From Fistulifera solaris (taxonomy: Eukaryota), in the NCBI GenBank assembly GCA_030295235.1, contig AP026127.1:1364001-1428000 (forward strand): DNA of 64,000 nt, given 5' to 3'. A program made the position numbers and the translations under genes. The notes under the pieces were generated by a model that worked only from the letters and a program-made list of their open reading frames with translations, ran no database searches and was not told the DNA's origin. Positions 11,816-47,590 of this stretch are shown piece by piece. Numbering within the stretch: position 1 is the stretch's first letter; each line of letters opens with the position of its first letter.

Positions 11816-11821
11816 TGTAAC

Positions 11822-12405: not shown

Positions 12406-12409
12406 TCTC

Positions 12410-17221: not shown

Positions 17222-17469
17222 CTATTTCAATTCCGCCGTTTACACAACGCTTCTACTGGGTTGAGGATCTGCTTTCTGCTGGGAGCTGGGAGTTCGGATT
17301 CCTGTAGTAATGTAGTATAATCAATTTAGTAGTAAAGAGGCTATATGTTGTCAGATCGCAGACGTCCCCGTAAGGGTTGATATCTCTGGTCTGGCATCGC
17401 CCGTTGGAGCCAGGTCGACAGTCGACACACACACACACACAACGCAACAATTTCCCATGCTCCTTTTTT

Positions 17470-17975
17470 TGGCATTCGACGTTTCCTTTTTCGCGTCGGC
17501 GTCAACAATTTCCTCGCTGGAAAGCACCTTCTATTTTTATGATCTTTGCTTGCTTGACTATGGAACGTCAGTCAACGAAAGTATCCACACATAAAAGTTT
17601 GGTGTGTCGTTTTCGGCCGGATTGCTTCAAGAGCGGCCATGATATGAGCAGTTGCGTTTCGAGCTTCGCGGCTCGCTCCAACGGAGCCTCAACGATGTCG
17701 CCTGTGGCTCTATTAAAACATAAACACAAGAGTTTTAAATGATATATATCTTCTAGGCTCATTTGCAGCACATTGCGGCCGCTTCTACGGCTTCGGCAGC
17801 GCACAGAAACTCCCCCTCTCCGCCGTCTTAGGAAGCAGACGACGCGCGAGCCCGTCCTAAATGTTCGCTTCCCAGTGGCTAAATCGACTCCCACGACCGG
17901 AAACACTTAGGAAAGCCGTTGTTCCTTCGCTCGGAGACGCCTTAACTCAATCAACAAAAATGAATATTCAGAGTA
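17470..17975 (+). repeat. Dispersed 0.5-kb leader module, copy A
   Basis: Colinear with the reverse complements of 39123-39645 and 47079-47590 (e.g. gcccgtcctaaatgttcgcttcccag, gagcagttgcgtttcgagcttcgcggctcgct). Confidence 0.92.
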
Positions 17976-18134
17976 ACAGTAAGTAGGTATGTGTTATGTG
18001 ATCATGCTGGTCGGTAGTCTCGGCAACGAACGAGGATCACTGCTGTCTTTCTATTGTTCTGTCGAAACGTAAGAAAGCGTTGAAATTCAGCTGTTTGCAC
18101 TTGAAAAGTATCTTATATCATATCAATCCTTACA

Positions 18135-20927
18135 ATGAGTGGCGTCAACATCAATCCTATTTTAAACGACCTCATACGCAGTGCTACTGAGATGTTCGAA
18201 TGGGACAAAAAGGAGAATGCGTGGCGATGCAACCAGTGCCCAGAAAGTGATGTTCCTGTAAGGTTCAATAACCATTTAGCCCTGAAGAAGCACATAAAGA
18301 AACACAAAGGCATTTGTGCACAAGGGTGTGAGTTTGACTGGGGTAAAACACCTGGCACCCTCTTTAGATTTCAGAGCAATGGTCCAGATATCAATTGCAG
18401 GGTTTGCGGTTTGATTCTCGAAAACTCCAAAGACTCGCTTTTAAAGCACGCACTCGACGAGCACGGAGACGTGGGCGTCGGACCGTGGCTTATAGAACCA
18501 TACCTCAAGAAGGCCAACGTTGACAAAAATAATTCTCATCTCAAGATTGACGGTCAAGCAATGGTACGCGACTTGCACGGATACGCACATGTTGACGAAC
18601 ACTCCATGGCTACTCGACACGGAGCAAATGCAACGAATGACAATGTAAAGGAAGGTTACTTCGGAATGTAAGTGCACAGCTGTGACTTTGGAGTTCTTCA
18701 TATGGTTGTGTTGGCGAAGAAGACGACGACTCACTGTTTCCTCTGCTTTTTGCAGACCTGTGAATGTAAATTGTCCAGACCCTCGTTCGGAAAGTGAGCA
18801 GCTAGGTTTTTCTCTACCTATTAGCCCGGCCTGTGTATCGTCTCCGGAAGCTCGTAAGGATGAGGCTTTTTCCGATGCACCATCATCGTCGCCGTGTAAG
18901 AAAACGCTTTTTTCCCGTCCGAATTTTACTCGCAACAACTTCAATCGCATCGCGTCTTGCGACAATCTCGCCCAATTATTGCGCTCTTCCGATAATTCCG
19001 ATGATAATGATCTCGCAGACAAACTTGACACCTCCTCGTCGTCCGCATTGAATATTACTTCCTCTTCAATTCCTCGATCCGCGGGCTTGGAGGAGAGCAA
19101 TCTCAAAAACGATAGCAACGCAGAATTCGAACAACCTTTACAGCCACGCACGCCTTTGTCCGTGATAGCAAATGGACAAGATCGCCAATCGACTTCTTCG
19201 GTCAAGCGGAAACCGGCGCTGCCAGCTCACATTGTGGCAACTGGAGCAGCTCTCAATGAAAAGCTACTGCTTCATGTCTTTTCGTTTCTGTCATTGAGCG
19301 AAATCACGACAACGGCGTCGGCAGTTTGCACTTCGTGGTCGGATGCTGCATTGACTGCAACTTGCAGCTTGATGTGCAGCATCCTAAACTTTCCAGACGA
19401 TGACGAGCTCAATGGGGAATATCCTTCCGCCGCTTCTTCTTTGGTGCTTGAGAAAGGTTGGGATGATTTGACGCGCTTATTTCCTTGGGGACGTTATCTT
19501 TCCGGCGGTGCATCAAAGGCCGTTTATCGAGTTCACAACAAGTTTACTAACCGTGCCGAAGCTGTCTCGGTCATGTGAGTTGAAATAGATTTGATCAATG
19601 CTCTGCCTGTCGTCTTGTTGGATACTAATACGCTTGTCGCCACAGGGATTTTGATACAATCACTCATACAAAGACCATCTTGGCCGAGCTCTTGGTTTCG
19701 TGGAAGTTGAGCTCGCTGACGCGTCTTGGAATTTGCCCGAACTTTGTCACAATTCGAGAAGTCTTTACATGCGGGCATCCTCCGCCTTCGGACTGGGGAA
19801 CCGCGGAGGAGGAGGCGAAACTTGGAGATGCTTTTGACCCAGGGATGTCGTATAAGCCGCCATCAAAACCCAAGAAATCGTACCCCGGCCGTTTTGTGTT
19901 TATTCGTATGGACCTGTGTAACCAAGGCGATGCGGAAGCTTTTTTGAAAAATCAGACTGGCGAAAGTGTTGATTCTCTGGTGGCTCGTTCATTCATCTTT
20001 CAAGTTGCGTTTGCATTGCATGTTGCTGGTGCCAAATTTTCTGTGAAGCACTACGATGAAAAATTGTTGAACGTCTTCTTGCACGCCCCGGAGGTGAAAC
20101 GGAATTTGGTACTTCGGTACGGTCTCGGCTCCCGAACATTTGCTCTGAATATGCCGCCGGGACAGGCGATTATTGCTAAAATCGCTGATTACGGCACCGC
20201 TGATATCCGACCTGAATCGAATGGAGAGCCCGTTACTGCGGCACAATTCACCACCATCGAAAATACGCCTCCTGATTTCATGATTCTTGGAGACCGTGCG
20301 CAGCAAGGTCCCGCTCACGACTGCTTTGGGCTGGGTCTCTGTATGTTGCATTTGTTCACAGGGCATGCGCCGTATGAAGAGATTCTCAAGAGTGTCAAAT
20401 GCCCGTCCAATCTGGAGAAGCGCCTGCGAAACATATGGGAGAATAAAAATGATGGTAACTATACGGTCATTCGCAGTGTCATTCTATCTGATGTTGAAGA
20501 AGATGAAGATGGGAATGTTGTCAGTGGAGAGCCGGACGAAAGGGTCTATCATACGCTCTACAGATTCTTGGTCTTGTTTGGTATTCCTGATTTAAAGTTC
20601 AAACGCAAGCGAGGCCCGAAAGTTTGGGTTGCAATCCAACAATTATTGGTCGAGCAAGGCGAAGGGCCCGATGCAAAGACCTATCGAAAGCATTGCAAAA
20701 AGTTTTCCATTTTGGAAGGACAGAACTTTTACATTAAAAGAGCTCGCAAAAGTTTGGAAAGCATGGATGGAGGCTTGGAACTTCTTTTTGAGCTGTGCTC
20801 GTTTGACCCTTCGACGCGTGCTACTGCGCTTGATGTTTTGAATTCACGCTTCATGGCAGCTCTTGTGGAGAATGAAAATAGCTTATACGACCCAGAAGAC
20901 ACGGTGCACTCATTCACAAGCTTTTAG
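18135..20927 (+). CDS. C2H2 zinc-finger + F-box-like + Ser/Thr protein kinase, about 877 aa; exons 18135-18667, 18756-19574, 19646-20927
   Basis: Both GT-AG introns restore frame; CNQC..HIKKH and CRVC..HALDEH fingers; 'LNEKLLLHVFSFLSLSEI...SAVCTSW' F-box; kinase motifs LSGGASKAVY, HYDEKLLN, KIADYGTA, DPSTR. Confidence 0.88.
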
Positions 20928-22917
20928 TTCTAGAGTGATAAATTTAGAAGCTTATTTCATTACTACGTGCCTTAGATTTGATCAGTTGTGACGAACCATC
21001 TATCAACTAAATGCCTAGTGCACCGTTACTATCTATGCCTATGTCTTTACTGTCTCGATTCATTCCAGAAGCGTATGATCTTCTGAAACTTCCGCTTCCT
21101 CGTAAAGATACAATGCAAGCACGGAGAAACGACAAGAGACTTCAGCGTTGATGTTGCAAGTACGTCGAGAGCGGTAAAATCCAATATTCCTTGACATCCT
21201 TGGCAAAACCATCGTTTCTTAATGATGCCAAAATCATTCGGAAAAGTCTCTTCAAGCCTTGGCAGATCACGAAGCTCGAAAGTCATGACACAAAGTGAGC
21301 CTGACGACTCTTTTGCAGGGAGAACACGAACGGGACGGGTGGTTTGTTGCATCTACACACAATAGGACGCACTGGGACAGGATGATTGTTACGTTGATGC
21401 GAATGCACCTTATAGGTCACCTCCTCTTTACAAGACAAATGCGCTACCGGAATTGGTCGCGATTGTTGCGAATTCGTAAAGCAGGGGAAAAGAATTTATG
21501 TCATTGTCGGGGTACCTGTGCTCGAAAATTAAATTAAAAGTGCGCGTGACTACTCGAAGAGCTGCAACTCAACCCAACTGCTGTCTATGCCACGCTATAT
21601 AACGACCTTCTTCCAGCCGAACATAGTCTCCTCGTCGTACTAAGGATCCTTTCGAACCACACAACCAGTCGATTCAAACCAAGACGTGGCAATCTCATCC
21701 ACGCTTACTTTAACACAGTCATTAAAAGGCCAGTAATTCAGAAGCAATCACCCAATCTCTCAATTGTTGAGATACAGAAGCTTACAGAAGTAGCCGAGAT
21801 TGCGAATTTTCCCGTCAAGCAGCTTTAGCGATGTCGAGGTAACACGAAACTCTCGCAGCTGGTCCAGCAATAGCAGATTGGCTGCGAAACTACTAACCGG
21901 TCGCGCATCGGAGTTACTGATAAAAGAAAAATCAACTGCTTCAGATTTCCCGACTGGTCAATTTAAAGTCGCTCATTGCGTTGAAGGGAAACTTTTTTCA
22001 TTCACCACCAATACCATCATTTCATCCCCCGGCAATATACAGCATTTTGACCCGGATCACGGAGTTCATTAGGGTGATAAGCATATGAAATTTAGGCTTT
22101 CAAATCAAAACAAATGTGAAAGGTATGTCGAAGCGTCTGAGTCTTGTGAGCAGCCTTTTTCTTCGTCACAGAGTTGACCACTTTCGCTATATTTGTGGCT
22201 TCAAAGGCAACCCATTTCGGTGTGCAGTCTATCGGGTAAACTTTGTCGTTAATTGCCTACAACTGGTTGCGGATGTAATACAAGATGTTTTTTAACAGTG
22301 TCGTGAGCATCGTAAATTGTATTCCTTTCAAATACTGTCGAAGTACTGGTAAGCGCTTGAAGATAAACAGGAGATGGTCAAACGCAGGAGTTGCAACTGT
22401 CTTCGTTACATCTTTTATACTTTACTTCTCTCAAAGATGACGAGATGGTCGCGACGACGACGGCGGCGGCGGGGCGGTCGAAAATAGAACGCGGCGAAAA
22501 AACACCGCCTTTTCAAAAACATAACGGAGTTTCGGTCAGACATGCATGCATATAGTGAGAAATATCTATGACGAGTTGTTATACACTGGAGCGCGCCCGA
22601 CGCGCTAATCGATGTTTCACAAAAATCCAAGAAGCGTTTTCTTTCTTCGCGCAGAAGCAGGAACTCACAAAATTATTCGCTCTTATTGTCGTCATCAACA
22701 ACAACGACGGGCATCATATTCAGAACTTTTGCTTGGTAAGCTGCTTGTTAAGTGATTGTGATCCGTCGACGTAAGCGCCCTTGGTTGTGAAGAGACCGCC
22801 AGTCGAACTCTTGTCGTCTCGTAATCGTCATCGTGCTCGTTTCCTAACCTTGGAAGCTCGCGATCGATCCTTACTTGAAGTTCCATCTAACGAAGTTTGC
22901 TCAAATTACTTAGGAAA

Positions 22918-23715
22918 ATGGACGACGACTCGATTTTGACTAATACTATAGATGCGGTCGATAGGATGCTTCTGGCCAACACCTGCAAATACTTGGAAGC
23001 CAGCAACTTCCCGGACATTAGAATGTGGATGGAGAGTTACCGGAAGCTCGAGGCCGAACGCATTAGAGGAGACCGGTTTTATCGCAAACTTGAACGTCTT
23101 CGAGAACTCAATATTGGCAGATTCGTCGAGAAACGCAACTATCTACTAAGTGCCTTGGAAGAAGACTGGGTAGGACAAGAAAATCTACCTGTGGAAGCAC
23201 CGGTGATGGAATCACAAGAGAATGCTTCTTTAGTAGTGATGGCGTCGCGCACGAACGAGAATCAGCCATCGGGGGCGAGCTCACGACAGCGATATGAAAA
23301 TGGCACGAAAATATCAAAGTTCTTTGAGGTGAATCAAGTGCATACGGAATTTGATGGAGAGGTTATCTCTTTCGACGAGTCAAATGATGGTTCTGGACGA
23401 TGGTTTTACACTATCCGCTACAATAATGGTCATGTAGAGTATTTGCTAGACGATGAAGTAAGCGTTTCGCTCGATGATCAAGTAAGCGAGCTCCTTGATG
23501 ATGATTCAGAAAACTCGGGTCTCGTATGGGTTCGTGATGGAAAAGAACAACATCCCGCAATTCTTGACAAGACCAAATCTCTTGTAAACAAGGATGAAAA
23601 AACATTGCGTGCTATTCGATGGCAAACATCTGGTCGCCCTGCTTTAGTCGAGCAAAACAAAATCGAGTATAAACTTGCTCCTCGCCGATCGACTGTCCCA
23701 CGATACAGCTTCTGA
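22918..23715 (+). CDS. Protein with a Tudor-like domain and a second SH3/PWWP-like C-terminal module
   Basis: 'RYENGTKISKFF...FDGEVISFD...WFYTIRYNNGHVEYL' and 'LVWVRDGKEQHPA...IRWQTSG'. Confidence 0.65.
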   Translation: MDDDSILTNTIDAVDRMLLANTCKYLEASNFPDIRMWMESYRKLEAERIRGDRFYRKLERLRELNIGRFVEKRNYLLSALEEDWVGQENLPVEAPVMESQENASLVVMASRTNENQPSGASSRQRYENGTKISKFFEVNQVHTEFDGEVISFDESNDGSGRWFYTIRYNNGHVEYLLDDEVSVSLDDQVSELLDDDSENSGLVWVRDGKEQHPAILDKTKSLVNKDEKTLRAIRWQTSGRPALVEQNKIEYKLAPRRSTVPRYSF

Positions 23716-24299
23716 ATTTCGAGCCATGCCTCGACAAGCATTGAAAGGAGCGAAAAAGCAACCAGCAGACGCGAGACGAAAGAATTGTATTATAAAATAT
23801 TTTGGCATAACGCTCCTCTTTGCATTCATCCGTAGAAATTGACATCGGTGAGTCAATATAAGTCGGCAAGCCGCAATCGAAACTCAATGGCAAAAAAAGA
23901 TTTTAACCCTCAAAATAAAAGGAAAAATCTTTTGCAGACCCTGTAGCGAACAACAAGCAACACGGGAGCTTCCAGCCCCGAAATAAGTAAGCTTAGCATG
24001 CGGCCAGTAGCAACAACAGACAAATCAAAAATCCAAAGAAGAAAGACACAATCGATACCGTTTGTGTATTCAGGAATGTGCAAACTACCGAGTTGCTAAT
24101 GGCGTTACCGATTTAGGCGCATTTCCTCCACGTAATTTCACACAAAACATTGCGGATTGTAGCAGAGGGTGTTTTTGATAGGAATCCGAGTTTACGACTG
24201 CGATCTACGCTTTGTATAGTTGAACACCCAAAGCGTAGAGATGATGCGATTACAAACAACGAAAGTATGTCCGATCAAACAAGTCAAAATGCTCTGACC

Positions 24300-24990
24300 A
24301 CAAGAGGGAGTCGAGCAGTCAGCCAGCCGGTGTACGATCAAGCATGAAGGATCACGCGCTTTCTTCGAATCTGTCAGCGGTCCATAGTGACAATCAAGAA
24401 GCGAGAGAAGACAGAGCAGAGAGACGTATCTACCAGTCTCATTCAACCGACATACTTCTCAAAGCAATGAATGTGCAGAACGGGGGAAGAGGTTATGCCC
24501 TCTTTCGATGCATGTCTCGTTCGTCGCACTGGGTTCTCCCTACATTCAAACAAGAACTGTGAACTCTTATCACCATGTGATCTAAAAGTAGACCGCATCT
24601 TCATGCCCACTTCTCCGATTCTCGTGATTTCTCTTGAATACTCTAGCGTAGCGGGGTCGTCCGACACTGCTATCAACATGGATGTCAAAATTCACTTATT
24701 GCTAGCATCACATTGAACGACTGAAAACGCAGGTGCCAATGAGATGAGCTGCTCGTCCGTTCAGGACGCCATCCTCTCTGGTGTATTACGGTGCAAAGGG
24801 GCGACTAGCGACTGCATCTATGAAATTCGACATTGCAGAAAGAGGTCACCGACAACTGGCTCGCCTACCTTTTCAGCTCGCACTTTTTTGCCGCATTGCT
24901 TTCCGTCTTACAATTAATATAACTCGTAGTACAGATCTGCCGTGGCCGCGATGCAGTCGACATGAATATCCGTTTACACAATGACACCTC
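24300..24990 (+). pseudogene. Degraded gene, second copy of the family at 11180-11546
   Basis: Fragmented + strand ORFs containing PSFDACLV, SSVQDAILSGVLRC and RGHRQLARLPFQL. Confidence 0.55.
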
Positions 24991-25995
24991 GTTGCCGATG
25001 GAAGCATCATCGTCCAGCACAACCAACTTCAATCGTTGCCAGCCGTTCATCCACGTATTAATAAGAGCTACTGCGCACTTGAATACCGAAAGCGTAGCGA
25101 CGACGGATCACACAAGTTCGTAAAATCAAACATCGAATCATACAAGTCAACCATTCCCAACACGTGAGTTGATTAAAGGGACCAGCAAGCCCATGTCGGC
25201 CGAGCATGAAGAAGCGAGCGCCTTTCTTTCGTCTACCGGTGGTCCAGTGTCGCAAGTAAGAAGTCAGGGAAGTCAGGCAAGACAGGACTGACGTCAACAG
25301 CCAACCTCGCAACAAAAATGTATCGAATCATCATTCAATGTGGCCCGGCAAAAGAGTCGGGAGAAGATGAACGGAATTTCGTCTGCCGGGGTCGCTTTCT
25401 GCAGTTAAAGTCGCCGTTTTTTCGTTTGTTGTCTCTATCGTTTCTTGAATCGCGGTTTTTTAGACCGATTTACGGGCGAATAGGTTGTTTTCGCGAGCCA
25501 ATTTTGACTTTAGCGCGATAATGCGTACTTCGCGACATTCCCCCCGCAAAGTAGACCTACAACCGCAGCAGAAACTGGCACGAGCAGGAGCGACAATCAA
25601 GGGCGGTAATATACCGGAGTATTGTTTTCAAGAAAGGAAGTTGGCCTCATAGTTGATACAAACCATTTTCGTCATCTCGGCCCCGGCCGCAGTATACCAG
25701 GTAGCAGTGCAAACAATAATAGGGCGCGCGGCATCAGGAAGAACACGACTGACGGCCGACAGACGATCACGTTGGAGGGAGAAACCGAAAAATTTGGCTG
25801 CCCGCGACATAATTGTCGGCTAATTAGTACAAGATGGCGCACTCCAAAAAAGCTATAGCGTTTTGTGTAGTTAATGACTCTTGCGGTTTTGATATTTCGC
25901 GTTTCTCGCATTTCATGTGACAACAAAACAAAGCAATCAGACGAAGACGCTATAGAGAGATCAAGGACCGCAAGAACACAACAATCAAGGGAACG

Positions 25996-28900
25996 ATGAA
26001 GTATGTTAACATGTTAGAGCAAGATTTGAAAGATGATTCGTCGATCAGCTCGGCGGCGTCCTCTTCCTCGTCTTCTTCCTCCTCCTCCTCTTCTTCATCA
26101 TCGTCGTCGTCGTCCTCCTCCTCCTCTTCGTCATCTTCATCTTCGTCATCCTCTTCCTCCTCGTCATCGGCATCCAAGTCATCGGCGAGTTCTTCTTCTT
26201 CAAAGTCTTCTGGTAGCTCGTCTTCTTCAGGAAATACGAGTAACTCAGATACGGCGGATGATTCATCAAAAAGAAGTCAGTCGTCAGATTCAGATACGGG
26301 GGAAAGCTCAAGTGCTGCGCCGAGCTCGGATGCTTCGTCTGCTTCATCGAGTAGTAAAAGCAGTCGAAGCAGCAAAAGTAGCGACGACGACAGTCAATCG
26401 AGTCGAAGTAGTCAAAGCAGTCGTAGTAGTAGCAGCAGCAGCAACAGCACTACCGCCAATTCTGCCTCCGAAAATGAAACCGACAGAGAAAGTGATACTG
26501 TCGGTGACTCTACGGCAGCATCAACTACATCTGCATCGGATGACAAGGATGAATCGTCTCAATCATCTTCATCGAACTCATCGGATTCAGAATCAACAAA
26601 GAGCGATGATGACAGCTCTCGTGACAGTTCGTCAACTACTTCCGAACATTCCGAATCGAATCAATCAACAGGCCCGTCCGCTATTGACTCGACTGAAGCG
26701 GAAGCTCCACCGGCTGTCATCTCCACTGATGCGGAAACCTCGGTAGATGAAGACTCCGTCGATACAGAATCCAGAAAGGTAGATATAGCATCAGCTAGTT
26801 TGTTGCAAAGCCCCGAACGAGATACACAATCGGAAGATCGAAACGTTGAAACAGCGCACGACGCCTCGGAAACATCGCGATCGGCACATGAAGAGCTTGA
26901 GCAAAGAGTAGACGATAGTCCGCGGGAAGAGTCTGACGATCGTGAAAGGGTAGAGCAGTTGAATCTACACGATGAACAGGAAGTTATTTCGGAGAAAGAG
27001 TATCTTACATCGCACGCAGCAGACCAGTCAGACTATGATGGTAGTTCAAAAGAAGTGAATTATGCACCCGCTCAACGTTCCTCGGAAGCGAAAGTTGAAG
27101 CGGGCAATACAGCTGAAGATGTCGATATCGTGACAAAAGCTGCCATGGAAGCAACTTTGTTCGAAGAACAAAAGCCACGTCGACAGTCGCGTTTGATAGA
27201 CTTAGATGACTCTGAGTTCCCCGACGATGATGACGACGAAGACGAGGAAGGAATTACGGCAGTGCTACCGCCAGCAATAACAAATGTGGCCGCAGCGAAT
27301 CGCAATGACGAAGACGAGGACGCCCGTGATGAGCTAAACAAAATTATTCCGCCGGGCGATTCCGCAACAGAATTGCAATCCACCACTGCTGCAGACTCTA
27401 AAAAGAAACGTGGCTTGATGCGATTATTTCGACGTAAAGACCGGTCTCGATCGAAAAGCCGTGACAGGGATCCGCTTCCACAAGAACCAATTCCTACCGT
27501 TGCCTCGAGCAACATCCAAACGGGAAGGGAGGATTCACGCACTGTTGTGGAAGTGACAGGCAATGAAGACGCGATGGTGGAGCGAACAGATATTGATGAA
27601 ATCTCGAAACCCGCGGAAACGATGGGGGATGCTTCAACTTATCGCATTGATGAAATCGACAGTCATTTGCAAGAAGAACCGGGGTCTGCTAATCAGATAT
27701 CAGAGGTCTCGTCAACAGCTGTATCCGTCCCAGAGAAAAAGAAGAGGAGAGGAATCTTTGGTTTCAATAATCGAAAAGATAAAGCTGCACCCTCGGAAGA
27801 GAGACACAGCCTTCGGCTTCTCATGGCCCGTCATCGCAATCTCACTCTGCGGCCACTGCTACGCCAACTATTGCTCCTATTGAAACTGACCAGTTGCCGG
27901 AAAAGACGAAAAAGAGAGGTCTTTTTGGAATCGGGCGCAGAGCAAAGGTGAAGTCAGCAGAAGACCAAGAAGACGATACGCCCTCTGACGTTACCCCTTT
28001 AGCTTCAGATTTGAACATGGAGAGAGGAGTGTCCTCAATGGAACCTTTCCCCATAATTGAGGGTTCTAGCACCGATAAAGACGCAACAAAAGCTCTCGAA
28101 GATTCGAGAAGGCCTGTGTCGGAAGTGGCGGCACAAGACACAAAATTTGCCGACGAATCGGCAATATTGCTCACCGGAATGGCAAAACTAATGGCTGAAG
28201 ACGAGACCCCCGACGAAGCACAAGAAGCAGCAAGAGTAAAAGCAGAAGAGACTGCGAGGCTGCTAGCGGAAGAGCAGGCCGAAGAAGAAGCGGCACGATT
28301 GAAAGCGGAAGAAGATGAAAAAGCTAGATTGTTGGCCGAAATTAAGGCCGAAGAAGAAGAGGCCAGGTTGAAAGAAGAAACGGCAAGAATTCAAGCGGAA
28401 GAAGAAGAAGATAATGCGAGGCTGCTAGCGGAAAAGCAGGCCGAAGAAGAAGCGGCAAGATTGAGAGCGGAAGAAGAAGAGAAATTTAGATTGTTTGCCG
28501 CAAGACAAGCCGAAGAAGAAGAGGCCAGGTTAAAAGCAGAAGAAGCGGCAAGAGTGAAAGCGGAAGAAGAAGAGAATGCGAGGTTGCTAGCGGAAAAGCA
28601 GGCCGAAGAAGAAGCGGCAAGATTGAAAGCGGAAGAAGAAGAAAAGGCTAGATTGCTGGCAGAAAAACAGGCCGAAGAGGAAGCAGAGCTGAAGGCAAAG
28701 GCAGCAAAGGAGCTCGAAGACAAAGAGAAAGAAAAAATCAAAAAGTAGTCTATTTTCCATTTTGCAGCATCGGAGAGAATTAGCCGACAGCGGAAAAGAC
28801 ACGGGGACGATCTTATAAAGAGAAAGAAAGAACTACAAGATGACAAACCGTCGATGAGTACTGACTTGGCAGCGATCTTTAGTAGGCGGAGGCAAAAGAC

Positions 28901-35841: not shown

Positions 35842-36351
35842 TCGTCATGGTTTCCCGAATCATCACCGGCGAGAGGAATGCTTGAAGCCATGGTAGCACG
35901 TTGCAAATCAAATAGAGAATAGAAGGAGACGTTTTTACTACTTCCAACTGCAATGACGGTTTCTCAAGTAAGAGTTTTGTTGTTGTGGATGCTTCGAATG
36001 AACGCGTGTTTGCATTGTTTTCCTTGGCATGAAATTTTGACTGCTGTATTCTGATGGCATGAAATTTTGGGAGAGGGCTTTTTTCGACGTGTACCGTCAC
36101 TCTGCGACATGAAGCACAAGTCACAATTAATAATTAAAGAACCGGTACGAAGCCCATCTCCGCTTGTTCACTGTACTTCGAAAAGTACTATACCTGCTAA
36201 GTGTCACAAAGCACACATCAGACATAAAATGTGTCTGTTGCACTTTTACTCCGTCGGCACCGACGCAAACGCAACAAACAAAATGCTTTTATCTCAATGC
36301 AAATATTCATTCCTCGAATCAACCTTCGTTCTTACAAATAAAATTTATATC

Positions 36352-37797
36352 ATGTCCTTTTTAGCCTCGCGTGTTGCTGCAGCCTCAGTTCGTGCATTGG
36401 GAAGCACCTTGATTGTCGGATGTTGGCTGCAACATGAGAAAGATCGTCATGCACGGTGTGAGACAATTTCTCAGTCTCCTGCTTCTTCCTTGGAGCATAC
36501 TATGCAAACGATCGCTGGTAATCCAACGTATGAAGCACCAAACGGAAAGAAAACGGATAATCTCTTTTACAATGATGGCGATTCCTTTCCGAACCTATCG
36601 CGGCACGGGTCAAACTCGTTGCTGAAAAAGTATCTGACGCCGGACGTTTACGAGCAACTCAAAGATAAACAAACATCCGCTGGAGTCAAATTGGAAGATC
36701 TCATTCAAGGGGGAATCGCTCTGCCTTGGGGGGCTCGTCCGCCGCGGGGAATCGCTGGTGTTTACGCCGGAGATGCTGGTACGTGCCTTCTTTTCTTGAT
36801 TTATACATACGGCATCGTTGTCTCACATTCTTTTCGCAAATCACAAAACAAAACAATCTACTTCTTTGAATGAAAAGAATCGTACACAACATTTTCTGTG
36901 TTACTCTCGCCTCTGATTGAAGCTCATCACAAAGCGCTGCATCGGGCACGATTGCGAAGACATCGCACGAACTTGGATGTACAAGGGCTTTCACAGCGTC
37001 GCTTGGATGGAGCGTACATTTTGTATACGCGCATGCGGTTAGCGAGATCATTGAATGGTTTTAAATTTGCTCCCTGCATTGGTCGAAGTGAGCGTCGAGC
37101 CGTGGAGCGTTTGCTGCGCGATTGCAGTCGCGATTGGCCACAGGGCTCTTACATCTCTCTCATGGAAATGTCGAACAATCAACATGAGGATTTGGTGAAG
37201 CGCCAACTGTTGTTTGCCGATCCGGATGAATTTGCAATTTCGACGGGCATGGGGCGTGATTGGCCAGATGGTCGGGGAATTTATTGCGATTCATGGGATG
37301 ATTTGCCGCACATCATGATGTGGGTGAACGCGCAAGATCATCTCTGGATTATTAGCAACGCCAAAGGTGGAGACGTTCAGGGTGTCTTTACAAGACTGTC
37401 GATGGCAGTAAGGAGTCTCGAAAAGAGCTTGAACGATCGAGGACAAAGTTTCGTTGAAGACCCGAACTTGGGTTTCCTTAATGCGTCTCCCGTAGACATT
37501 GGTACTGCACTCCGGGCAAGTTTATACGTCAAACTGGTCCGCTTGGGCCAGAAGCCGGGGTTTGATGAGTTGGTGCGGCGTCTTCGCTTAGAAGCTCGCC
37601 CTTTAAAGTTTCAGAGCCAGACTTACACTGGGATGTTTGATATTGCAAACTTGGAAGCCCTCGGGAAAACGGAAGTAGATCTGATCAATTTAATGATTGA
37701 AGGAGTGGGCACTCTGATTGATCTGGAGAAGCGGCTAGAAAATGGTGAAGACATTGACATAGAGGCAATTGCGCAAAAGAAAGGGAGTAGAAAGTAG
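36352..37797 (+). CDS. ATP:guanido phosphotransferase (arginine/creatine kinase)-like protein, probably mitochondrial; intron 36779-36877
   Basis: 'SLLKKYLTPDVY', spliced 'GVYAGDA|ESY..F', 'TRMRLARSLNG', 'DWPDGRGIY', 'GTALRAS'; N-terminus MSFLASRVAAASVR resembles a transit peptide. Confidence 0.9.
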
Positions 37798-37889
37798 AAA
37801 GGTAATGGTATATGAAGCATACACGCAAACAGTAACTGTCTTCTTAGGTGTTTAATAGTAGAAGATGAATCCATAAAACAACTTAGATA

Positions 37890-38952
37890 CTACACTAGTA
37901 ATCGTTGTTCATGACGCGTTCGAAACATGGGAAAGACTCCAGTAGCTTTGCCGTTAGCAAGCTTGTTGCATTCATCACGAAAAAGGACTTTGTTGAGCAT
38001 TTCATTTTTCGGATAGATCTTGTACGTTTTGACGTCGTGAAAATAAGGAAGGAAAAAGTCGGAACGATGTTGCTCAACTTCCAGATTAGCTTTGTGCACC
38101 AAAAACGTATTTTCAATGCTACTGTGCAGTACTGGCTGCTTCGAGACATCAAACTCTTCTTCGTAGAATTTGACAAACTTCTTGGTGCAGTATGTCACGA
38201 CACGGTCAAAGATTGCTTTATCTCCCGAAGTCCAGAATTCCTCCATGGATTGGACTCCCTCATCTTGCAGTTTCGGCAGAAGCTTCTCTAACCAGTTCTC
38301 CCAAATGTCATCAGCAACAATTAGATCGTCATTTGCAATTTCAAAGATGAAGTCGGAAAACGGATTTGCAGCGTAGTCGACTGGACCAGGAACAATAACT
38401 TGACCACCAGTCAAAGCCGCTTCCATCAGTGCCACTTCTGTTTCCCCCTTTCCTCGTTTGCTGCGATGAACGGGTCGCAACACATAAACTCGCTTATCGC
38501 TGTCAACGGCCACCCATTCCAACGGCAAGTCAGTCAACTCAACAATGCGCGAAACTTGGGTTTTCTGGGTGGCGTCCTTGACCAACACGTGCGCAGGAGC
38601 AGGTGCTCCGGAGGGCATACAAGTTGCCACAAAGAAAGGAACGTCGGTTCCTCCAGAAACTCCCTCAACGAGGTGGAACTCCCTCACTTCGGTAGCCATG
38701 AAGGTAAATTGTTCCTGAGAGCTGCCCAAGAAGAGTCTCGACAGGACGGCCAATGTCGAATTCCCAAACGGCTTTCTCTGAATGACCGGTAATCAGAGGA
38801 AGGCTACGAGCATAGTACACTTGTCGAGAAAAGAAGGCAAACGTCGGAGGGATAGCAAGAGTAAGCTTCAGCTTTTTGGCCAGGGGCACTGTGATCTCTT
38901 CGATCCGTCGTTTCATTCGTCGGCTGCGGATAATCTTGGATGATGAGTTCAT
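37890..38952 (-). CDS. Hypothetical protein; frameshift near 38720
   Basis: 287-aa ORF 37890-38753 overlaps ORF 38665-39039; ATG at 38952 lies about 170 bp downstream of leader module copy B. Confidence 0.6.
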
Positions 38953-39122
38953 TATGATAGTAGTAGAAGCAGAAAAAGAGCTGCCTTTTCGATGCAAATG
39001 TCGTGCTTTGTGAACAGTTGATGCGCTCTCACATAACAAAAAGAGACACCAATGAAAAGTTTGGCGACGAAGAAGCCACTACTACGTACTAACGTCGGTG
39101 AACACAAAGACAAAGACTCGTT

Positions 39123-39645
39123 AGTTTAAAACATAATCTTATTATTCATTACTGTTGACTGAGTTAATGCGTCTCCGAGCAAGACAGCAACGGATTTCCT
39201 AAGTGTTCTCCGATCGTGGGAGTCAATTTAGCCGCTGGGAAGCGAACATTTAGGACGGGCTGGCGCGTCGTCTGCTTCTCATGACGGCGGAGAGGGGGGA
39301 GTTTTTGTGGGCTGCCGAAGCCGTAGAGGCGGCCGAATTGTGCTGGTAATGCACTTGGGAGAGCTATATCATTTGAAAATTTTGTGCTTATGTTTCAATA
39401 GAGCAACATGCGACATCGTTGAGGCTCCGTTGAAGCGAGCCGCGAAGCTCGAAACGCAACTGCTCATAGCATGGCCGTTTCTGCAGCAATCCGGCCGAAA
39501 ACGACAAATCACACTTAAATGTTAGACTTCTTTCGTTGGTTGATGTTTCAAAGGCAAGCAAGCAAAGATCATTGAGAATAGAAGGGGATTCCCAGCAAAG
39601 AATTGTTGACGCCGACCCGAAAATGGCGAATGTCGAATGCGGAAA
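39123..39645 (-). repeat. Dispersed leader module, copy B; weaker homology to copy C continues to about 39900
   Basis: Colinear with 47079-47590 and the inverted 17470-17975. Confidence 0.92.
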
Positions 39646-39994
39646 AAGAGCTTGTGATGCATGTTGAGAGTGGCCTTCTTTCATGCGGGTACCCGGTATG
39701 ACTGTTAAAGTACGAAGGTGTACCGGTGCGTCTTTTAGTTTTTACACTGGGAGAGACACGGGAACGCACCTCTGCTTGGTACATTTTTCTACGGGGGGCC
39801 TACGTGAGTGTACACTTTTTCCCGAACCTTCCTGAGTGAATTTTTTACCGCGATGACGTCATTTTTTCTTTGTACCTTTTCTCCATCATTCGTCATCCGA
39901 ATGAATGATGGATGCTATGAAGAGGATGCAATAATTACACGTAGAGCGCACCTGAATCATTTCGCCAGCCTGACTATTTCGCGCTGAGGGTTTT

Positions 39995-40600
39995 GGGAAG
40001 TTTAACACGGTAGCATGATGCTACCGTGTTAAACTAGCATCACGGTAACCTTAAATATTTTTTATCGAACGGAAAACTGACTTTCTAGATTTAATAAATA
40101 CACCAATAGAATCAGTAGGTCGAGATCTGTTCAAAACCGCTGTGTTTTTCATCATTTGCGTAAACCGTGTGACGTGACGGCCGGCCTAAGTTCCTCAACC
40201 CAGGCCTCGAGCGGGCTCTAACAAGAACGGCTGATTAATAAGCAAGTAAAGTCTACTTTTTTGAATATAGCAATGAGAAGACACTATCATATCATGAACT
40301 GCTAGTTAAAACCATTTGCAACTTCTTGAAAGGTACGAAAGGCTAAAATTACACCTTGATTATTACACGTGATATCACCGTGTTAAATTCTACTACGCGA
40401 TACCACCGTGTAATATTTATTTAGTAATTTAACACGGTGTACCTCGGGCGAATTTAATCAGGTTGGCCCAAAATCTTGAGACCCCCCTGGTAAAATTTTC
40501 TATCGACCATAGCTTTGTCAAAAATGGTCGGATGAAAAAAATAAAGCTAGCAAATGAAAGGTCTCACCGAGATCTATTCAGAAATGCAATAAAAACCCTC
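39995..40600. mobile_element. Probable non-autonomous DNA transposon remnant(s) with palindromic/subterminal repeats
   Basis: Perfect 18-bp inverted repeat at 39999-40035; motif ACCGTGTTAAA recurs in both orientations at about 40378 and 40428; related 'ggtc..cgagatct.ttca.aa' motifs at about 40118 and 40560. Confidence 0.5.
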
Positions 40601-40860
40601 CAGATGGAACTCTGTGATTGGCTGGAATTTTTTCGTGATTCTTCCGCGAACCAGTCAGGTGCGCTCTACAAGCTGTTTGCGCTTCGTTTATTTTGTGCAG
40701 CAAGCTTTGGGAAGGTTGACGAACAAATGCTCGTCTCATCTAACGACGACTTCAAGATTTGGTTGGGTGGGTTCATTTCCCCAACCGGTACGGTTCGTGT
40801 TCCAGGTACACCGTTTGATAAGGCCATGGCTGCACGCGACCGCATGCTGACCATTTCTTA
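40600..40860 (+). pseudogene. Cytochrome P450 internal fragment (E-F-G helix region, CYP120/CYP26-like)
   Basis: 'YKLFALRLFCAASFG...DDFKIWLGGFIS...VPGTPFDKAMAARDRML'; no I-helix, ExxR or heme motif follows. Confidence 0.5.
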
Positions 40861-41598
40861 TCAACTTTGTCATCAAATTCACCTAATTACGTGTTGCATG
40901 CAACAAATCGCGCTACTTTAGAAAGAACGGTGCACAAGGACGAAGAAGTCACTGTGACAACCACTGCTTTTCAAGCAAAACAACGGATGCAAGCCGAAAT
41001 CGAAACGATTTAAAATCCTACTCAACGACCGACCATTCCAACAAACCATAACCCTGCAACTCTTGATACTGCGGGCTTTATTGTGTATATTCATGACAAG
41101 ATCTTTTCGTTTTGCGGTTTTCCTTCTTCTTTTGTGGTAGACTTTCGACCACCAATTTTCAACTTGCATCCGCGGGCAACTTCGTTTTATGAATAATACG
41201 TTTCAATCTTTTGAAGCACGGTTTAATTTTTTGTCGGTGACGCCGCAGTCTGATACGCCGTCCTGTTGCGGTAGTTATTCCTTTGCGGTCGGCTTTGACC
41301 GGGACCTGCAACCTCGGGCACCTTTGTCGACTGGGTTTTGTTATTCGTCGGCGAAAATGCTGCTTCGAACGTCGAAGCTTGGCTTATTTTATGGTCGACC
41401 ACCCGGCAGCTTGTAACCTTTTCTTGTTGCGAAAGTTCTTCTTTTGCGGTTGGCCTTTGCAGTGACTTTCAATCACGGGTATACTTGTCAGATTGTGGGT
41501 GCGCAAATAGGTCCTTTGCGTGTCAATGCCGAGATTTGTCGTCGACGTCGAATTCCGCCTACACAATGAACCTACAGCAACTAGCGGAAAACAGAGCT

Positions 41599-41798
41599 TC
41601 GTAATGCCTTTCGCCACCGAAAATTGTAAAATGCGTTAAAGCATTGCGAATTGCATTAACAGTATGGTGAATTTCGCTGATCTAGGTAACAAAAGGAATC
41701 GTAATGCCTTTCGCCACCGAAAATTGTAAAATGCGTTAAAGCATTGCGAATTGCATTAACAGTATGGTGAATTTCGCTGATCTAGGTAACAAAAGGAA
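41599..41798. repeat. Perfect tandem duplication, 2 x 100 bp
   Basis: 41599-41698 is identical to 41699-41798. Confidence 0.95.
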
Positions 41799-42069
41799 CG
41801 GATTTACAGGGAGGATTCAATCATCGAAAAACTCTTCCTTCTTGACTAAATCGCAGTCTTGTCACAAAGACCTATACACTAAGTCTAGTTTCAAACTTTA
41901 GTTTCATTCACTTTAGTTTCATAGAAACCTGGGAAAACAACGAGCCACCACAATAAGAAGTGCAAAGAGCATTGAAACACCGCCCAATGGGTTACCTGGA
42001 ATAAGATGACAATCGAAGCTGATCGAGAAACAATGTATACTAAGGTACAAGTAAGGGAGGAGTATTGAT

Positions 42070-43235
42070 CGGCACACAGGACGTTTGATGGATGCCAAAC
42101 ACCGCTTCCAGTGCTTCTGGAACTTCAACACGATCTTTCTGTGACAGAAAATGAAAATTCCAGAATTTCTGGAATGCACGAGAGATCTCTGAAGTGACGC
42201 AGAACACCGATTCCAAGATTTTTGGAACATTGCAGCTTTTCTGGAACGCCAACAGAGTTGCTGTAGGACCAAAAATCTGATTCCAGAAAAATCTGGAACA
42301 TAGACAGGATTTCTGTGTGATCAAAAAAACATCGGGTCCAGAAATTCTGGACCATGCACAGAATTCACCTGCAACGCAAAACAACGATGCCAGCATACTG
42401 TGTCTGCAGGACACAAAGGACGTTTGATGGATGTCAAACACCGATTCGATTATTTCTGGAACGTCAACACAATCTTTCTGTGACCGAAAATAAAAATTCC
42501 AGAATTTCTGGAATGCACGAGAGATCTCTGAAGTGACGCAAAACACCGATTCCAGGATTTCCGGGACGTTCGGAAAATATCAGCGTGATTTCGAACATCG
42601 GTTGCAGCTTCCCTGGAACGCGCACAGAGTTGCGGTAGGACCAAAATACCGATTCCAGAAAATCTGGAACATAGACAGGATTTCTGTGTGACCGAAAAAC
42701 ATCGGGTCCAGAAATTCTGGACCATGCACAGAATTCACCTGCAACGCAAACCAACGATGCCAGCATACTGTGTCTGCAGGACACAAAGGACGTTTGATGG
42801 ATGTCAAACACCGATTCGATTATTTCTGGAACGTCAACACAATCTTTCTGTGACCGAAAATGAAAATCCAGAATTTCTGGAATGCACGAGAGATCTCTGA
42901 AGTGACGCAAAACACCGATTTCAGGATTTCCGGGACGTTCGGAAAATATCACAGGATTTCTGTGTGACCGAAAAACATCGGGTCCAGAAATTCTGGACCA
43001 TTGCACAGAATCTATTTGCAACGCAAAACAACGATACCAGATTATCTGCAGGACAAAATGGACGTTTGATGGATGCACAACCACCGCCCTTCCAGATTTT
43101 CCGGGAACCTGAAAATACACCTGGTCCACATTTTCTGGACACGTCAAAACACCGCTCTCCCAGATTTTCCGGGAACGTGAAAGTACACTGTATCCACATT
43201 TTCTGGCTACGTGAAATCACCGCACTCCCGGATTT
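42070..43235. repeat. Hierarchical minisatellite: about 53-bp subunits with palindromic core, in a 370-bp higher-order repeat; 35-bp units at the right end
   Basis: atcgggtccagaaattctggacc at 42331, 42701 and 42977; core aaacaccgaTTCCAGAATTTCTGGAAc recurs in degenerate form about every 53 bp. Confidence 0.92.
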
Positions 43236-45239
43236 ATCGATTAGTTTTGGGCCGCGACGGCGGAGCCGTATTTTTTTTGAGATGGGGCGGAAAGTCCGTA
43301 AAGTTTACTTCATCCATCTTCGTGCAACATGTTTTCGTCCATTTTCTGGATCGGAATTAAACGCGAATGCGGAGCGGTGGACTGTAAGCGCTGCAGCCAA
43401 CAAGGTTTTGCGGGTGGTGCAGTTATAATTGACCCTGATGTTGTTGCTGGGGCGCTTCTTCGCGCCCTTTTATGCGGACCATGGCATTTTCTTGTATGGA
43501 ATTGAATCGTATTTCTGCACCATGCAATAACATCTTACTCATTGCTCACTGCATAGCGCATGCCGAAGAATTGGAAAGCAAAAACTATCGCCGCGCGTCG
43601 AGTGGAAAATAGGATCGTTTCATTACGAAATTGTTTCACCCGCCCTGGCCAAAATTTATTGAGATGTGGCAAATATTACAACGTCTTTTCCACTCAACCA
43701 GCCTTACGAAGAGCGGGCTTTTGTCGTGAACACTATGATCGAATCACAACACAATTTACCTTCTTGAATGAAACGAAAGAAAGTCACCAACTTACGTTAG
43801 GTATCTACCCAATATCAAGATTGCATCTTTGAAGATATTTGACGGCTATTCAAAAGTGGGCCAAGGCCTTCAACTGCTCGTTTTGGCGGAGAGCACGACG
43901 CGATGCGACTATTTCAACAACATAAGCCGATACTGTGTCGGAACACTGTCTGGGTGAAGGCATGACGGAATTCGCTGCAGTACCGGGGATTCAGTCCTCG
44001 TTTATTAGTCCTTCGTTATTAACTGGACAAAAGCCTTCGCGCTCGTGTTGCGTTGCAAATCGTGTCACTTCCGTGGTTCTGGTATTTCACATTATTGGAA
44101 CTCACGGCACCGTAGCGGTGATGACTGCGTTCAAAATAACACCAGATACGGGAAATGGCAGCCCCTTAACAATCATGTTCGCGCAGCCTTGTGACTGATT
44201 ATTTTATGTAAGGTTACACAACAATGGAACCGAAGAGTGTCGATACAAAGAACAGAGGCGCGAAGAAGTCGCGATGATGTGGTATTTTCATAAAGGATGT
44301 ACGTGTAATGGAGAAGTCGTCGGCAAACACAATAGTGAAGGCGTTTGTGTGAATGAATTCGGAGACCAAATTTCTGTTTGAAGCATGAAGCTGCATGCAC
44401 AAGTTTCGCAAGCCAGGGCCAGTATAGCACCTCAAACGCAGCGAGCAGCAAGCAGCAAGCAACCTCGTCGTCATCGCCGGGAACGGAAGAAACGGCGAAA
44501 CAAGAATGGCGGGGCAAAAGAATAGGAATTTCGATGAAAGCTTTCGCGGAGGCATCTGGGCTCAATACAACGACCAGCCACAGCAACAGCACAAATGCTC
44601 ATGAAAGAGTACTGAACCGGGTATATCGACACCATTAAGTGAGCACAAGCTATCTACTGAACGAACAAGTGCTGCTGAGTCGAGAACTAGCTGACAAGAG
44701 TGAAGACATTCGGCAGTTGTCGTCAAGAAAGCGACGAAAAACTGTGCAGTATGCTTGTTTTGCATTAAAAGCTGTAGAAAGGGTCTGCATAGGGAAAAGT
44801 GCGGACCCTTTTTACACAAAGCAAACGAAAGCGATAGAAAAAAATCCAACTCGTTTTGCTGGCGGGTGACTGGCCGGTGCAAGCCGACGTACTCAGATTG
44901 GACTGACTTTCTGTTTTTTCGTGAGCTAGGGTGCAGCAAGATTTGCTGTCTCGAGATACTTGTAGTCGAAATACGGATCGCGAGGTACGGCTCATTGCTT
45001 TTGGGGCTACTGTCAGCGCTCCTAAACGAATGGATTACTGTGGATGACGTGAATTGTTATTTCATTTTTTCAGAATAGATCGAGTCACTTTGATTGCGAA
45101 CTACTTCAACTAGAAATATTAAGAATTAGATATGTCAAAATCGTTGTCTAATTAAAGAATGCCATGCTATCAATCTTGCATGTCTACTTCTTTTTGGTCG
45201 TCGGCAAACAAGACTTTTTCTTATATGAGCCACCTTTCT

Positions 45240-46920
45240 TCAAACCTTTTGGTTTCTTCTTTTCGCAGCAAGCCCACAAGATTTATCCGGAGAAGCTTTA
45301 TCTCCCTTCGACCCAGGTGACACATTCTCATTCTCTTCATCGTGTATCAAACTAGCGGCTACGTCAGCTTCAGACATGCGTCCCAGAATGCCATCATCAT
45401 AACGAACTGTGTAACCCCAGGTTCTCGTGCCGTCATCCGCTCTGAACTGATCAAATGACTGAACAGTTCCACTACAAACTACAGCGTCTCCGACCTCAAA
45501 ACCACTGCTGAAATACTTTGCAACCTTTGTACCAGTGGCAAATTTCTGGGCTGGCTCCGACGGAAAACCATCATCCTTCATACACTTCGTCGTGCCATCA
45601 TTGTACTCGACCACTTTATTCCAAGTGATTGTACGCTTGACAGCAAGGGAATTGCTAACTGTTCGTGCTTTCTTAGAAACGCTTTTAGCAGCGGTTCCGG
45701 TCGCTTTTCGTCTGGATGGCCCACTGTTCAACGATTGTGATAATTGGCGACTTTGGCTTCTAGTCGTCGGTGCAGTGATCTCCACAGCACCGCCTCTCGA
45801 TTCGACGTCCTTAGCAAAGGGCGGTGGATGTATCGTGGCAGTTTGTTGTCGTGTTTTCTGATGGAAAAGGTTTTCATTTGAGGCTACTCCAGTTGCCACA
45901 ATGCGAGCCGAAGGTGCCGCTTTCCGCTTAATCGAAGAGATCGGCTGGTGATCTTGTCCATTTGTGTTCACGGACGAAGGCATGCGTGGCTGTAAAGGTT
46001 GTTCGAATTCTGCGTTGCTATCGTCCTTGAGATTGTTCCCCTCCAAGCCCGCGAATCGAGGAGTTGCAGAGGAAGCAATATTCAATGCGGACGACGACAA
46101 GGATGCGTCAAGATTATCTGCGAGTTCATCGTCGGAATCATCGGAAGAGCACAATTGGGCGAGACCGTCGCGAGACGCGATGCGATTGAAGTTTTGTTGC
46201 GAAGAAAGAAGCGCTTTCTTACATGGCGACGATGACGATGGTGCGTCGGAAAAAGCCTCATCATCCTTTCGTGCTTCCGGAGACGATACGCAGGCCGGGC
46301 TAGGTAGAGAAAGATCTAGCTGCTCGTTTTCCATGCGAGCGACCGGATTTGCAGGCCTGCGCAATTTTAGGAGAAGTAAGTCACACAACATGAAGAGCGA
46401 CATTACATTTGCTCACTTACATTCCAAAGTATCCTTCTATCTTGGCGCGTCCAAGCGCGTCGCTTTTCATTGCTTGTCCATCAGTATCCGGAAGTACGTT
46501 GGTAGAGCGCTGCGCCCGACGTTTTGCGCTATATTTCACTTGGTAAACAAACTTCTCTATGGTCCACAAAGGAATATCCGAATTTTTGTGGATTTCGAGC
46601 TGTAAGTGCTCAATGAGAGCACTCGCTTTCATCGGAAGTTGCACATTAGAACAGTCTTTGCACCTGAAAAGTCTATGGTGGAGTCGGAAGAGGGCCCCCG
46701 GCTTTTGCCCAAAATCAAAATCCGTGCCTTGCGCGCAATCATCAGAGTGTTTCGAACTGATGTGGTTTTGCGTCGCCTCGGAGTAACTGAAATACAAAGA
46801 AGGATTCTCGTTTGGACAAATTGTGCAGCGTCCCGACTTTGCTTTTTCATCCCATTGAAAAACTTGAGCCCAATGGCGATAGAGACCGTCCGTATTCAAA
46901 TTGTTGCTCTCGGAACTCAT
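45240..46920 (-). CDS. C2H2 zinc-finger + Tudor-like protein; exons 46920-46421 and 46356-45240
   Basis: CTIC..HISSKH and CKDC..HLQLEIH fingers; same intron position after 'EGYFG' as the 18135 gene; exon 2 is paralogous up to 'IVATG.A.NE', then Tudor-like 'FATGTKVAKYF...YTVRYDDG'. Confidence 0.85.
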
Positions 46921-47078
46921 GATATTGAATGACGACTTATTCTTTGATCCGAAAGACTGATTGCGAGCACTTTTTGATTGACATGCAACAAGAGGAACAC
47001 CAGCGATCCTCTTTCTCGCTGACAACTCGTCTGCAGTCGAACATGGTTTTTCTTGGATACAATAACTGAGACACAATC

Positions 47079-47590
47079 AGTTTAAAACATGATCATGATA
47101 TTCGTTACTGTTTACTGAGTCAAGACGTCTCCTAGCAAAAGAACAACGGATTTCTTAAGTGTTTTGCAGTCGTGGGAGTTGATTTAGCCGCTGGGAAGCG
47201 AACATTTAGGACGGGCTCGCGCGTCGTCTGCTTCTCATGACGGCGGAGAGGGGGGAGTTTTTGTGCGCTGCCGGAGCCGTAGAGGCGGCCGACATGTGCT
47301 GGGAATGAGCTTAGAAGATATATATTAAATGGAACTCTTGTGTTTATGTTTCAATAGAGCCACATGCGACATCGTTGAAGCGAGCCGCGAAGCTCGAAAC
47401 GCAACTGCTCATAGCGTAGCCGCTTCCGAAGCAATCCGGCCGAGAACGACACATCACACTTAAATGTGAGGCTACTTTTGTTGGCTGACGTTTCAAAGTC
47501 AAGCAAGCAAAGATCATCAAGAATAAAAGGTGATTCCCAGCAAGGAATTGTTGACGCCGACCCGAAAATGGCGATGTCGAATGCAAAACA
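47079..47590 (-). repeat. Dispersed leader module, copy C
   Basis: Colinear with copies A and B. Confidence 0.92.

Follow-up and report, generated by a model that had tools for sequence, protein, structure and literature searches.

The stretch analysed here (the window) is 64,000 bp of the diatom Fistulifera solaris, positions 1,364,001 to 1,428,000 of contig AP026127.1 in assembly GCA_030295235.1, and it carries three copies of a non-coding block of about 0.5 kb, each in sense to the ATG of a gene just downstream (18135, 38952 and 46920 for genes 1, 2 and 3, respectively). A preliminary description of this DNA saw in the block a conserved leader in front of three different genes, and offered as its nature a portable promoter or 5'-untranslated region (5'-UTR), the end of a gene-capturing element, or a decayed coding exon. 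F. solaris is an allopolyploid with two subgenomes (PMC5935921); below, C7 is the chromosome that holds the window, C8 is the homeolog of the window's part of C7, copies 1 to 3 are those of the window, and copy 4 is a fourth one on C7. A literature search outside the subscription journals found no published work on this locus.

Genes 1 and 3 both begin with a zinc-finger-like (ZnF) exon and end in different domains, F-box-like plus kinase in gene 1 and Tudor-like in gene 3; their predicted spliced models are open over 877 and 538 amino acids. Gene 2 encodes a Fistulifera-restricted hypothetical protein unrelated to those of genes 1 and 3. The three genes are thus different only in part: gene 2 stands apart, and genes 1 and 3 are paralogous in exon 1, in intron position and over the first 480 bp of exon 2.

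Copies of the block and their positions

Self-comparison of the window with BLAST gives identities of 86.3% over 518 columns between copies 2 and 3 (E 1e-176), 84.7% over 503 columns between copies 1 and 3, and 83.9% over 527 columns between copies 1 and 2, all far above chance (E <= 5e-156), within bounds of 17468–17975 (+), 39123–39640 (-) and 47079–47588 (-). The three copies first described are thereby borne out, at 84–86% over about 0.5 kb. DNA, translated and pattern searches of the genome (51.7 Mb in 62 contigs; copy counts are lower bounds) agree on five copies, four within a 160-kb part of C7 and the fifth on C8. A 22-mer that is invariant among the copies, sought with up to three mismatches, gave five exact matches genome-wide (the reversed control gave one) and none in metagenome and viral contigs, and nhmmer found no further block copy in 635,992 fetched, partly overlapping bases. 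All five copies lie in sense to an open reading frame (ORF). Contigs of a DNA-like sequencing run span block and gene with the same letters at copies 2 and 3; this run may be the source of the assembly.

The C8 copy precedes the gene 2 homeolog in a 1-kb divergent intergenic stretch that has a cytochrome P450 gene on its other side (an open 481-amino-acid model with a Pfam p450 match), and copy 2 occupies the syntenic, ancestral position on C7. Copy 3 lies within a C7-only stretch (about 40854–47779) that splits the P450 gene into two remnants, and because this gene is open on C8 the present position of copy 3 is derived. Copies 1 and 4 also lie in C7-only stretches, of about 11180–24944 and about 2.9 kb, respectively. 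The ORF downstream of copy 4, about 135 codons long, may not be a gene, since the genome holds no relative of it and Pfam gives no match. We note that C7:1230000–1262000 and C8:1100000–1130000 run in the same orientation and that the window region is inverted, which implies an inversion between the homeologs that lies between copy 4 and the window.

Table 1. Features of the window and block copies elsewhere (window coordinates unless a chromosome is named)
Feature	Position	Strand	Basis
Copy 1 of the 0.5-kb block	17468..17975	+	Self-BLAST, end comparison
Copy 2 of the block, ancestral (syntenic) position	39123..39645	-	Self-BLAST, C8 synteny
Copy 3 of the block	47079..47590	-	Self-BLAST
Copy 4 of the block	C7:1252223-1252662		Genome search
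Homeolog copy of the block	C8:1236483-1236957		Genome search
Spacer 1, homologous to spacer 3 and weakly to the copy 2/C8 spacer	17976..18134	+	Alignment against null
Gene 1 exon 1, two C-x2-C...H-x3/4-H zinc-finger-like motifs, no Pfam match	18135..18667	+	Read from sequence
Gene 1 predicted GT-AG intron, same codon position as in gene 3	18668..18755	+	
Gene 1 exon 2, part common to gene 3 (62/455 sites differ)	18789..19265	+	
Gene 1 F-box-like plus kinase tail, intron at 19575-19645, 69% identity to the C25/C26 gene pair in its 3' part	19267..20927	+	
Gene 3 exon 1, zinc-finger-like, 36-37% amino acid identity to gene 1 exon 1	46421..46920	-	
Gene 3 predicted GT-AG intron	46357..46420	-	
Gene 3 exon 2, part common to gene 1 (45868-46332), then Tudor-like domain related to the HA-Tudor family	45240..46356	-	
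Patch preceding copy 1, derived from C7 sequence about 47 kb away (81-91%) and interrupted by 80-bp palindromic repeat 17142-17222, meeting the block at a (CA)n run	17030..17435	.	
Upstream sequence common to copy 3 and C8, with ATGACGTCAT palindrome at 39853, interrupted by 80-bp repeat at 39753-39835	39646..39895	-	
Upstream sequence copied with copy 3, with ATGACGTCAT at 47717, ending directly at P450 remnant	47591..47779	-	
Gene 2, Fistulifera-restricted hypothetical protein, intact syntenic C8 homeolog, one-base frameshift near 38680	37890..38952	-	
Middle remnant of cytochrome P450 gene, intact on C8	40665..40853	+	
3' remnant of broken P450 gene	47780..47953	+	

Age and apparent conservation of the block

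The block is indeed far more alike than the first coding exons that follow it: between copies 1 and 3, 67 of 494 block sites differ, against 219 of 451 sites of exon 1. This had been taken as high conservation and a hint of function, a reading that fails because the block diverges between the homeologs at the background rate. Copy 2 with its spacer is 0.765 identical to the C8 sequence, the median of 22 homeologous non-coding stretches is 0.758, and nine of the 22 reach 0.766 (only stretches of at least 200 aligned bases are included; 23 are listed and one shorter was omitted). A conserved non-coding element changes more slowly than neutral sequence between orthologues, which at these values the block does not, and what remains is short invariant blocks. 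Synonymous divergence (dS) between homeologs ranges from 0.20 to 0.47 across seven genes.

The four C7 copies are separated from each other by Jukes-Cantor distances of 0.11–0.17 and from the C8 copy by 0.24–0.28. In the block the paralogues are thus closer to one another than to the orthologue, and in the spacer copy 2 and C8 are closest, the discordance by which interlocus gene conversion is recognised. Were the C7 copies ancient and held alike by selection, copy 2 and the C8 copy would share many sites to the exclusion of the rest. The counts are 5 among 430 block sites and 9 among 104 spacer sites (Fisher p 0.0002), which points to a younger ancestor of the C7 copies; 53 of the 430 block sites are private to C8. 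Judged from these rates, the common ancestor of the C7 copies would have about half the age of the divergence between the parental genomes. The apparent conservation of the block is thus best read, on these alignments, as recent copying rather than selection, since homeolog identity is at background and the C7 copies are about half as diverged.

Genes 1 and 3 carry a second tract of this kind. Copies 1 and 3 differ by 13.6% both in the block and in the common part of exon 2 (62 of 455 sites; about 480 bp, dS 0.26 between the genes), and the core that lies between these tracts is far more diverged, at 59 of 133 sites in the spacer, 219 of 451 in exon 1 and 24 of 64 in the intron. Over the ZnF exon dS is about 2.8, near saturation, the ratio of non-synonymous to synonymous divergence (dN/dS) is 0.22, and the Cys/His pattern of zinc ligands is kept, all consistent with old paralogues. 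Hypermutation of this core was considered and ruled out, as there is no skew in its 103 transitions and 116 transversions. Both genes are absent from C8 and the two ZnF exons, both on C7, are the only such exons found in the genome, a search that very diverged donors could escape; because the other subgenome is without orthologues of genes 1 and 3, the comparison of orthologue with paralogue works for copy 2 and C8 only.

The proposal that chimeric genes are present at this locus is supported, in that other gene families supplied the tails of genes 1 and 3. Similarity between the two genes stops at 19265–19267, precisely where similarity to a pair of F-box-like/kinase genes on C25 and C26 begins, and the donor intron is kept; a dS of 1.5–1.6 and a dN/dS of 0.14–0.15 against this pair mark the kinase tail as an old DNA-level fusion under purifying selection. 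The Tudor-like domain of gene 3 has kin among HA-Tudor genes elsewhere, with 14 matches and 51% for the best distant one.

The spacing between block and gene, described as near-constant, is so within the window (the 22-mer lies 281, 304 and 292 bp before the ATG at copies 1, 2 and 3, respectively) and is looser outside it (252 bp before the ORF start for the C8 copy, about 337 bp for copy 4). When spacers are aligned against a null of 342 scores, none of the null scores is as high as those of the copy 1–copy 3 and copy 2–C8 pairs, in both global and local alignment, so shared descent of the spacer accounts for most of the constancy. Global alignment of the ZnF-gene spacers with those of gene 2 gives 0/342 null scores as high for copy 1–C8, 1/342 each for copy 3–C8 and copy 1–copy 2, and 35/342 for copy 2–copy 3; the copy 4 spacer has no convincing homology to the others.

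These relationships probably arose when an intergenic stretch that would bear a promoter was copied ectopically at the DNA level, or passed on by gene conversion, together with the building of chimeric genes. The block would be half of the ordinary 1-kb divergent intergenic stretch between the P450 gene and the orphan gene 2, inherited by both parental genomes, and, to judge by position, gene 2 probably has upstream promoter sequence in it. After the parental split it would have been copied within the C7 lineage by ectopic events at the DNA level; copies 1 and 3 would have entered two old ZnF paralogues, whose 5' regions were already related, by non-allelic gene conversion or by recombination, and copy 4 would have arrived by insertion of a ragged patch ahead of a possible orphan gene. 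Exchange of the same kind in a second tract would have made the exon 2 sequences of genes 1 and 3 alike, while ancient divergence persisted in the spacer, ZnF exon and intron that separate the tracts, and separate DNA-level fusions would have given the ZnF genes their different tails.

Several observations weigh against this history or blur it. The tree of the five sequences is nearly a star, and for this reason the donor and the order of copying are not fixed. Invariant positions in the block are clumped (p 0.003 and 0.0004) and their longest run is 22 (p 0.011), so parts of it may be under constraint. The homology between ZnF-gene and gene 2 spacers is modest, since local alignment beats the null for the copy 1–copy 3 and copy 2–C8 pairs only, and the presumably unrelated C8–copy 4 pair also reaches 1/342 in global alignment. 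At the site of copy 1, C8 has 3.9 kb of unrelated sequence, which fits a gain on C7 and a loss on C8 alike. Finally, conversion cannot be told apart from a recent duplication with later replacement of the core.

The clumping also bears on a reading in which the block is a functional promoter cassette, kept and spread by selection before new chimeric genes, with the ZnF cores held apart by selection. It is in keeping with this that every copy faces an ORF in sense at 252–337 bp from the 22-mer, that both chimeric models are open with dN/dS below 1, and that a diverged core between homogenised flanks resembles a "peak of divergence" as described in PMC3924837. We consider it unlikely, given that the homeolog divergence of the block equals the background rate, that variability among the C7 copies is not significantly correlated with change on the C8 branch (r 0.15–0.44, p 0.085–0.26), and that the ORF at copy 4 is itself doubtful. 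Each copy moreover has about 11 ATGs in the sense strand, which makes a plain unspliced 5'-UTR or leader role unlikely and places a transcription start site, if there is one, more likely near the 3' end of the block or in the spacer. A more elaborate reading, slightly less likely again, is that of a gene nursery in one parental genome. Recombination would keep the promoter-bearing block and the constant exon-2 arm alike as fixed flanks, the ZnF cassette that they enclose would be swapped or kept divergent by selection, and F-box-kinase or Tudor tails would be joined on behind. In that case the block would serve as a module for expression that can be used again and again, and through it new orphan regulators would become subgenome-specific and co-regulated.

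Four sequencing runs of guessed type, X1 to X4, were compared over 35901–50300 in 30 bins. X1 covers all 30 bins and is DNA-like; X2, X3 and X4 cover 15, 11 and 13, miss nearly all of a control ORF at 36055–37797, and show no splice joints among the rows displayed, so that these runs give no information on expression. Their patchy contigs lie over repeat-rich, non-genic 40701–42140 and 43581–45101 and not over most genes, which is not what RNA-seq looks like.

Ends of the block and neighbouring sequences

The ends of the copies are ragged. Copy 3 carries about 190 bp more upstream sequence, common to copy 2 and C8, up to the P450 junction; copy 1 extends about 25 bp upstream of the block to a (CA)n run, where it meets a patch whose source lies about 47 kb away; and copy 4 is cut at both ends. 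The palindrome ATGACGTCAT, possibly a bZIP-type site, is kept upstream of copy 2 (39853), copy 3 (47717) and the C8 copy (C8:1236325), and is found nowhere else in the two main fetched stretches.

These ends bear on the suggestion that a Helitron-like or Pack-type element ends in the block. Pack-type elements (Pack-MULE, Pack-CACTA) have terminal inverted repeats (TIRs) and a target-site duplication (TSD) at an empty site, and a retroposed fragment, the 3' end of a short or long interspersed nuclear element (SINE or LINE), has a common A-tailed end, a variable other end and a TSD. Capture of promoters and first exons is on record for Helitrons, which are defined by a 5' TC and a 3' stem-loop followed by a terminal CTRR (PMC4224331). 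That the block might be the end or body of a low-copy non-autonomous transposon of either type carrying gene fragments is favoured by the loss of similarity near the same T-run/GCATT point in all copies, and by the several captured gene pieces and repeats in the C7-only stretches. The T-run is present in four of the five copies and absent from copy 4, and homology passes it in copy 2, copy 3 and C8. The longest inverted matches between the end regions of a copy are 5–9 bp and differ among copies, direct matches at the block ends are 6–10 bp and inconsistent, no target duplication is seen where the copy 3 stretch has taken the place of about 610 bp of the P450 gene, and there is neither a CTRR at a common position near the 3' end nor a terminus common to all five. 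No transposase adjoins any copy among the ORFs scanned, and the minisatellite near copies 3 and 4 (below) lies in opposite orientation relative to the block. With five copies on one chromosome pair, differing ends and no shared TIR, TSD or CTRR, a Helitron-like or Pack-type transposon is an improbable source.

A coding past for the block fares no better. No intact ORF is shared by the copies, as had been observed, and translated genome search for an intact coding ancestor returned the same five places only. One long frame, of 112 codons on the minus strand, is open in copy 1 and broken in the other four. It would fit a small gene or RNA, decayed or active, on the opposite strand and head-to-head with the downstream gene, as would a T-run at the common end that could be an A-tail on the minus strand. 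The frame has the lowest ratio of non-synonymous to synonymous differences (0.67, where the six frames span 0.67–1.32), a value to which others come close (0.79–0.80), and this frame, the one put to the large protein library, has no match in Pfam or among 1.84 billion proteins. Neither the decayed exon suggested earlier nor an antisense gene is therefore supported, and we regard the latter as very improbable. Rfam gave no match at gathering score (two at chance level only), none of 92 predicted pairs has a compensatory change on the sense strand, the strand examined, and no tRNA lies in the block. A structured non-coding RNA is ruled out as far as these sense-strand and Rfam tests reach.

The frameshift of gene 2 near 38680 is probably a slip of the assembly, because record P0003 reads through it and a DNA-like contig differs by one gap. 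The dN/dS of gene 2 is 0.25, and its protein has three records in all, among them FisN_2Lh564 (100% to the C8 copy) and FisN_2Hh564 of Fistulifera solaris. By records P0002 and P0006, gene 2 is present in a third lineage too. There was no usable Atlas match, and a metagenome scan with P0002 gave 61 pattern matches, none of them confirmed. For the ZnF protein, which may resemble BED fingers, the leads are unnamed or zf-C2H2-like at 0.89–0.92 with recognition below the bar; no longer relatives were seen (weak evidence) and at near length only the protein's own record, matches in the PDB were to eL39 only and spurious, and the AlphaFold model has a predicted local distance difference test (pLDDT) score of 44.

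Repeats and gene fragments are frequent around the block. Upstream of copy 2, an inserted 80-bp repeat (39753–39835) recurs with 98–99% identity at two other sites on C7, its summed depth in the DNA-like run is very high, and it is probably a young, abundant element resembling miniature inverted-repeat transposable elements. A different 80-bp repeat, palindromic, is present at 12327–12405 and 17142–17222 as well as on C3, C8 and elsewhere on C7, and its two window copies flank a 228-bp tandem array (12417–16982) in inverted orientation. Degenerate direct repeats (11189–11540 and 24437–24912, 74–78%) lie near both ends of the C7-only stretch with copy 1. A 100-codon frame at 11821–12123 without a Pfam match, resembling the C-terminal endonuclease end of CRE-type retrotransposons without long terminal repeats, stands beside a decayed Tudor copy (11578–11812) that is 84% like gene 3. 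Finally, a minisatellite family with internal palindromes (42040–44130) has further members near copy 4 and at several sites on C7; it lies beside a decayed copy of a gene with long open frames on C34 and C35 (a weak TMEM151 match is below cut-off), and this arrangement of minisatellite and gene fragment recurs on C3.

Comparison with known systems

The feature is real and is a new instance of known processes, which gives a worked example of the origin of subgenome-specific orphan and chimeric genes in an allodiploid diatom. The species is reportedly amenable to genome editing, and if the block drives the chimeric genes it would be a case of natural promoter sharing among unrelated genes. It is also a warning that a non-coding block more alike than the adjoining exons can simply be younger, the homeolog serving as an internal clock.

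The high-dGC (H) subgenome of F. solaris holds more non-homoeologous genes than its partner, 122 against 56 on Chr 2 (PMC5935921). Genes 1 and 3 resemble these in being subgenome-specific and on the side that a database record names 2H; the available text of that study gives counts rather than origins, its 11 supplementary files contain no FisN identifiers, and its Chr 2 would be the C7/C8 pair, judging from gene names.

Chimeric genes formed by partial DNA-level duplication and fusion are a general class. As in that class, a 5' part is joined here in frame to an intron-bearing 3' part, the products are lineage-restricted and dN/dS is below 1; unlike it, two tails stand on one paralogous head and the upstream block appears to have been homogenised later. 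The reappearance of a promoter-proximal host fragment before other sequences recalls HelibatN3-type Helitrons that capture promoters and first exons, from which the block differs in having no shared 5' TC or 3' hairpin-CTRR ends, no dispersal, and five copies instead of hundreds to thousands (PMC4224331). A close parallel in pattern is interlocus conversion between duplicated genes such as the red and green opsins, where divergence peaks locally (PMC3924837): in both, paralogues are closer than the orthologue in the homogenised parts, a diverged core lies between the flanks, and the copies are tens of kb apart. Unlike in the opsins as that source presents them, the homogenised tract here is upstream and non-coding, occurs also on a non-homologous gene, and adjoins a core that is saturated at synonymous sites.

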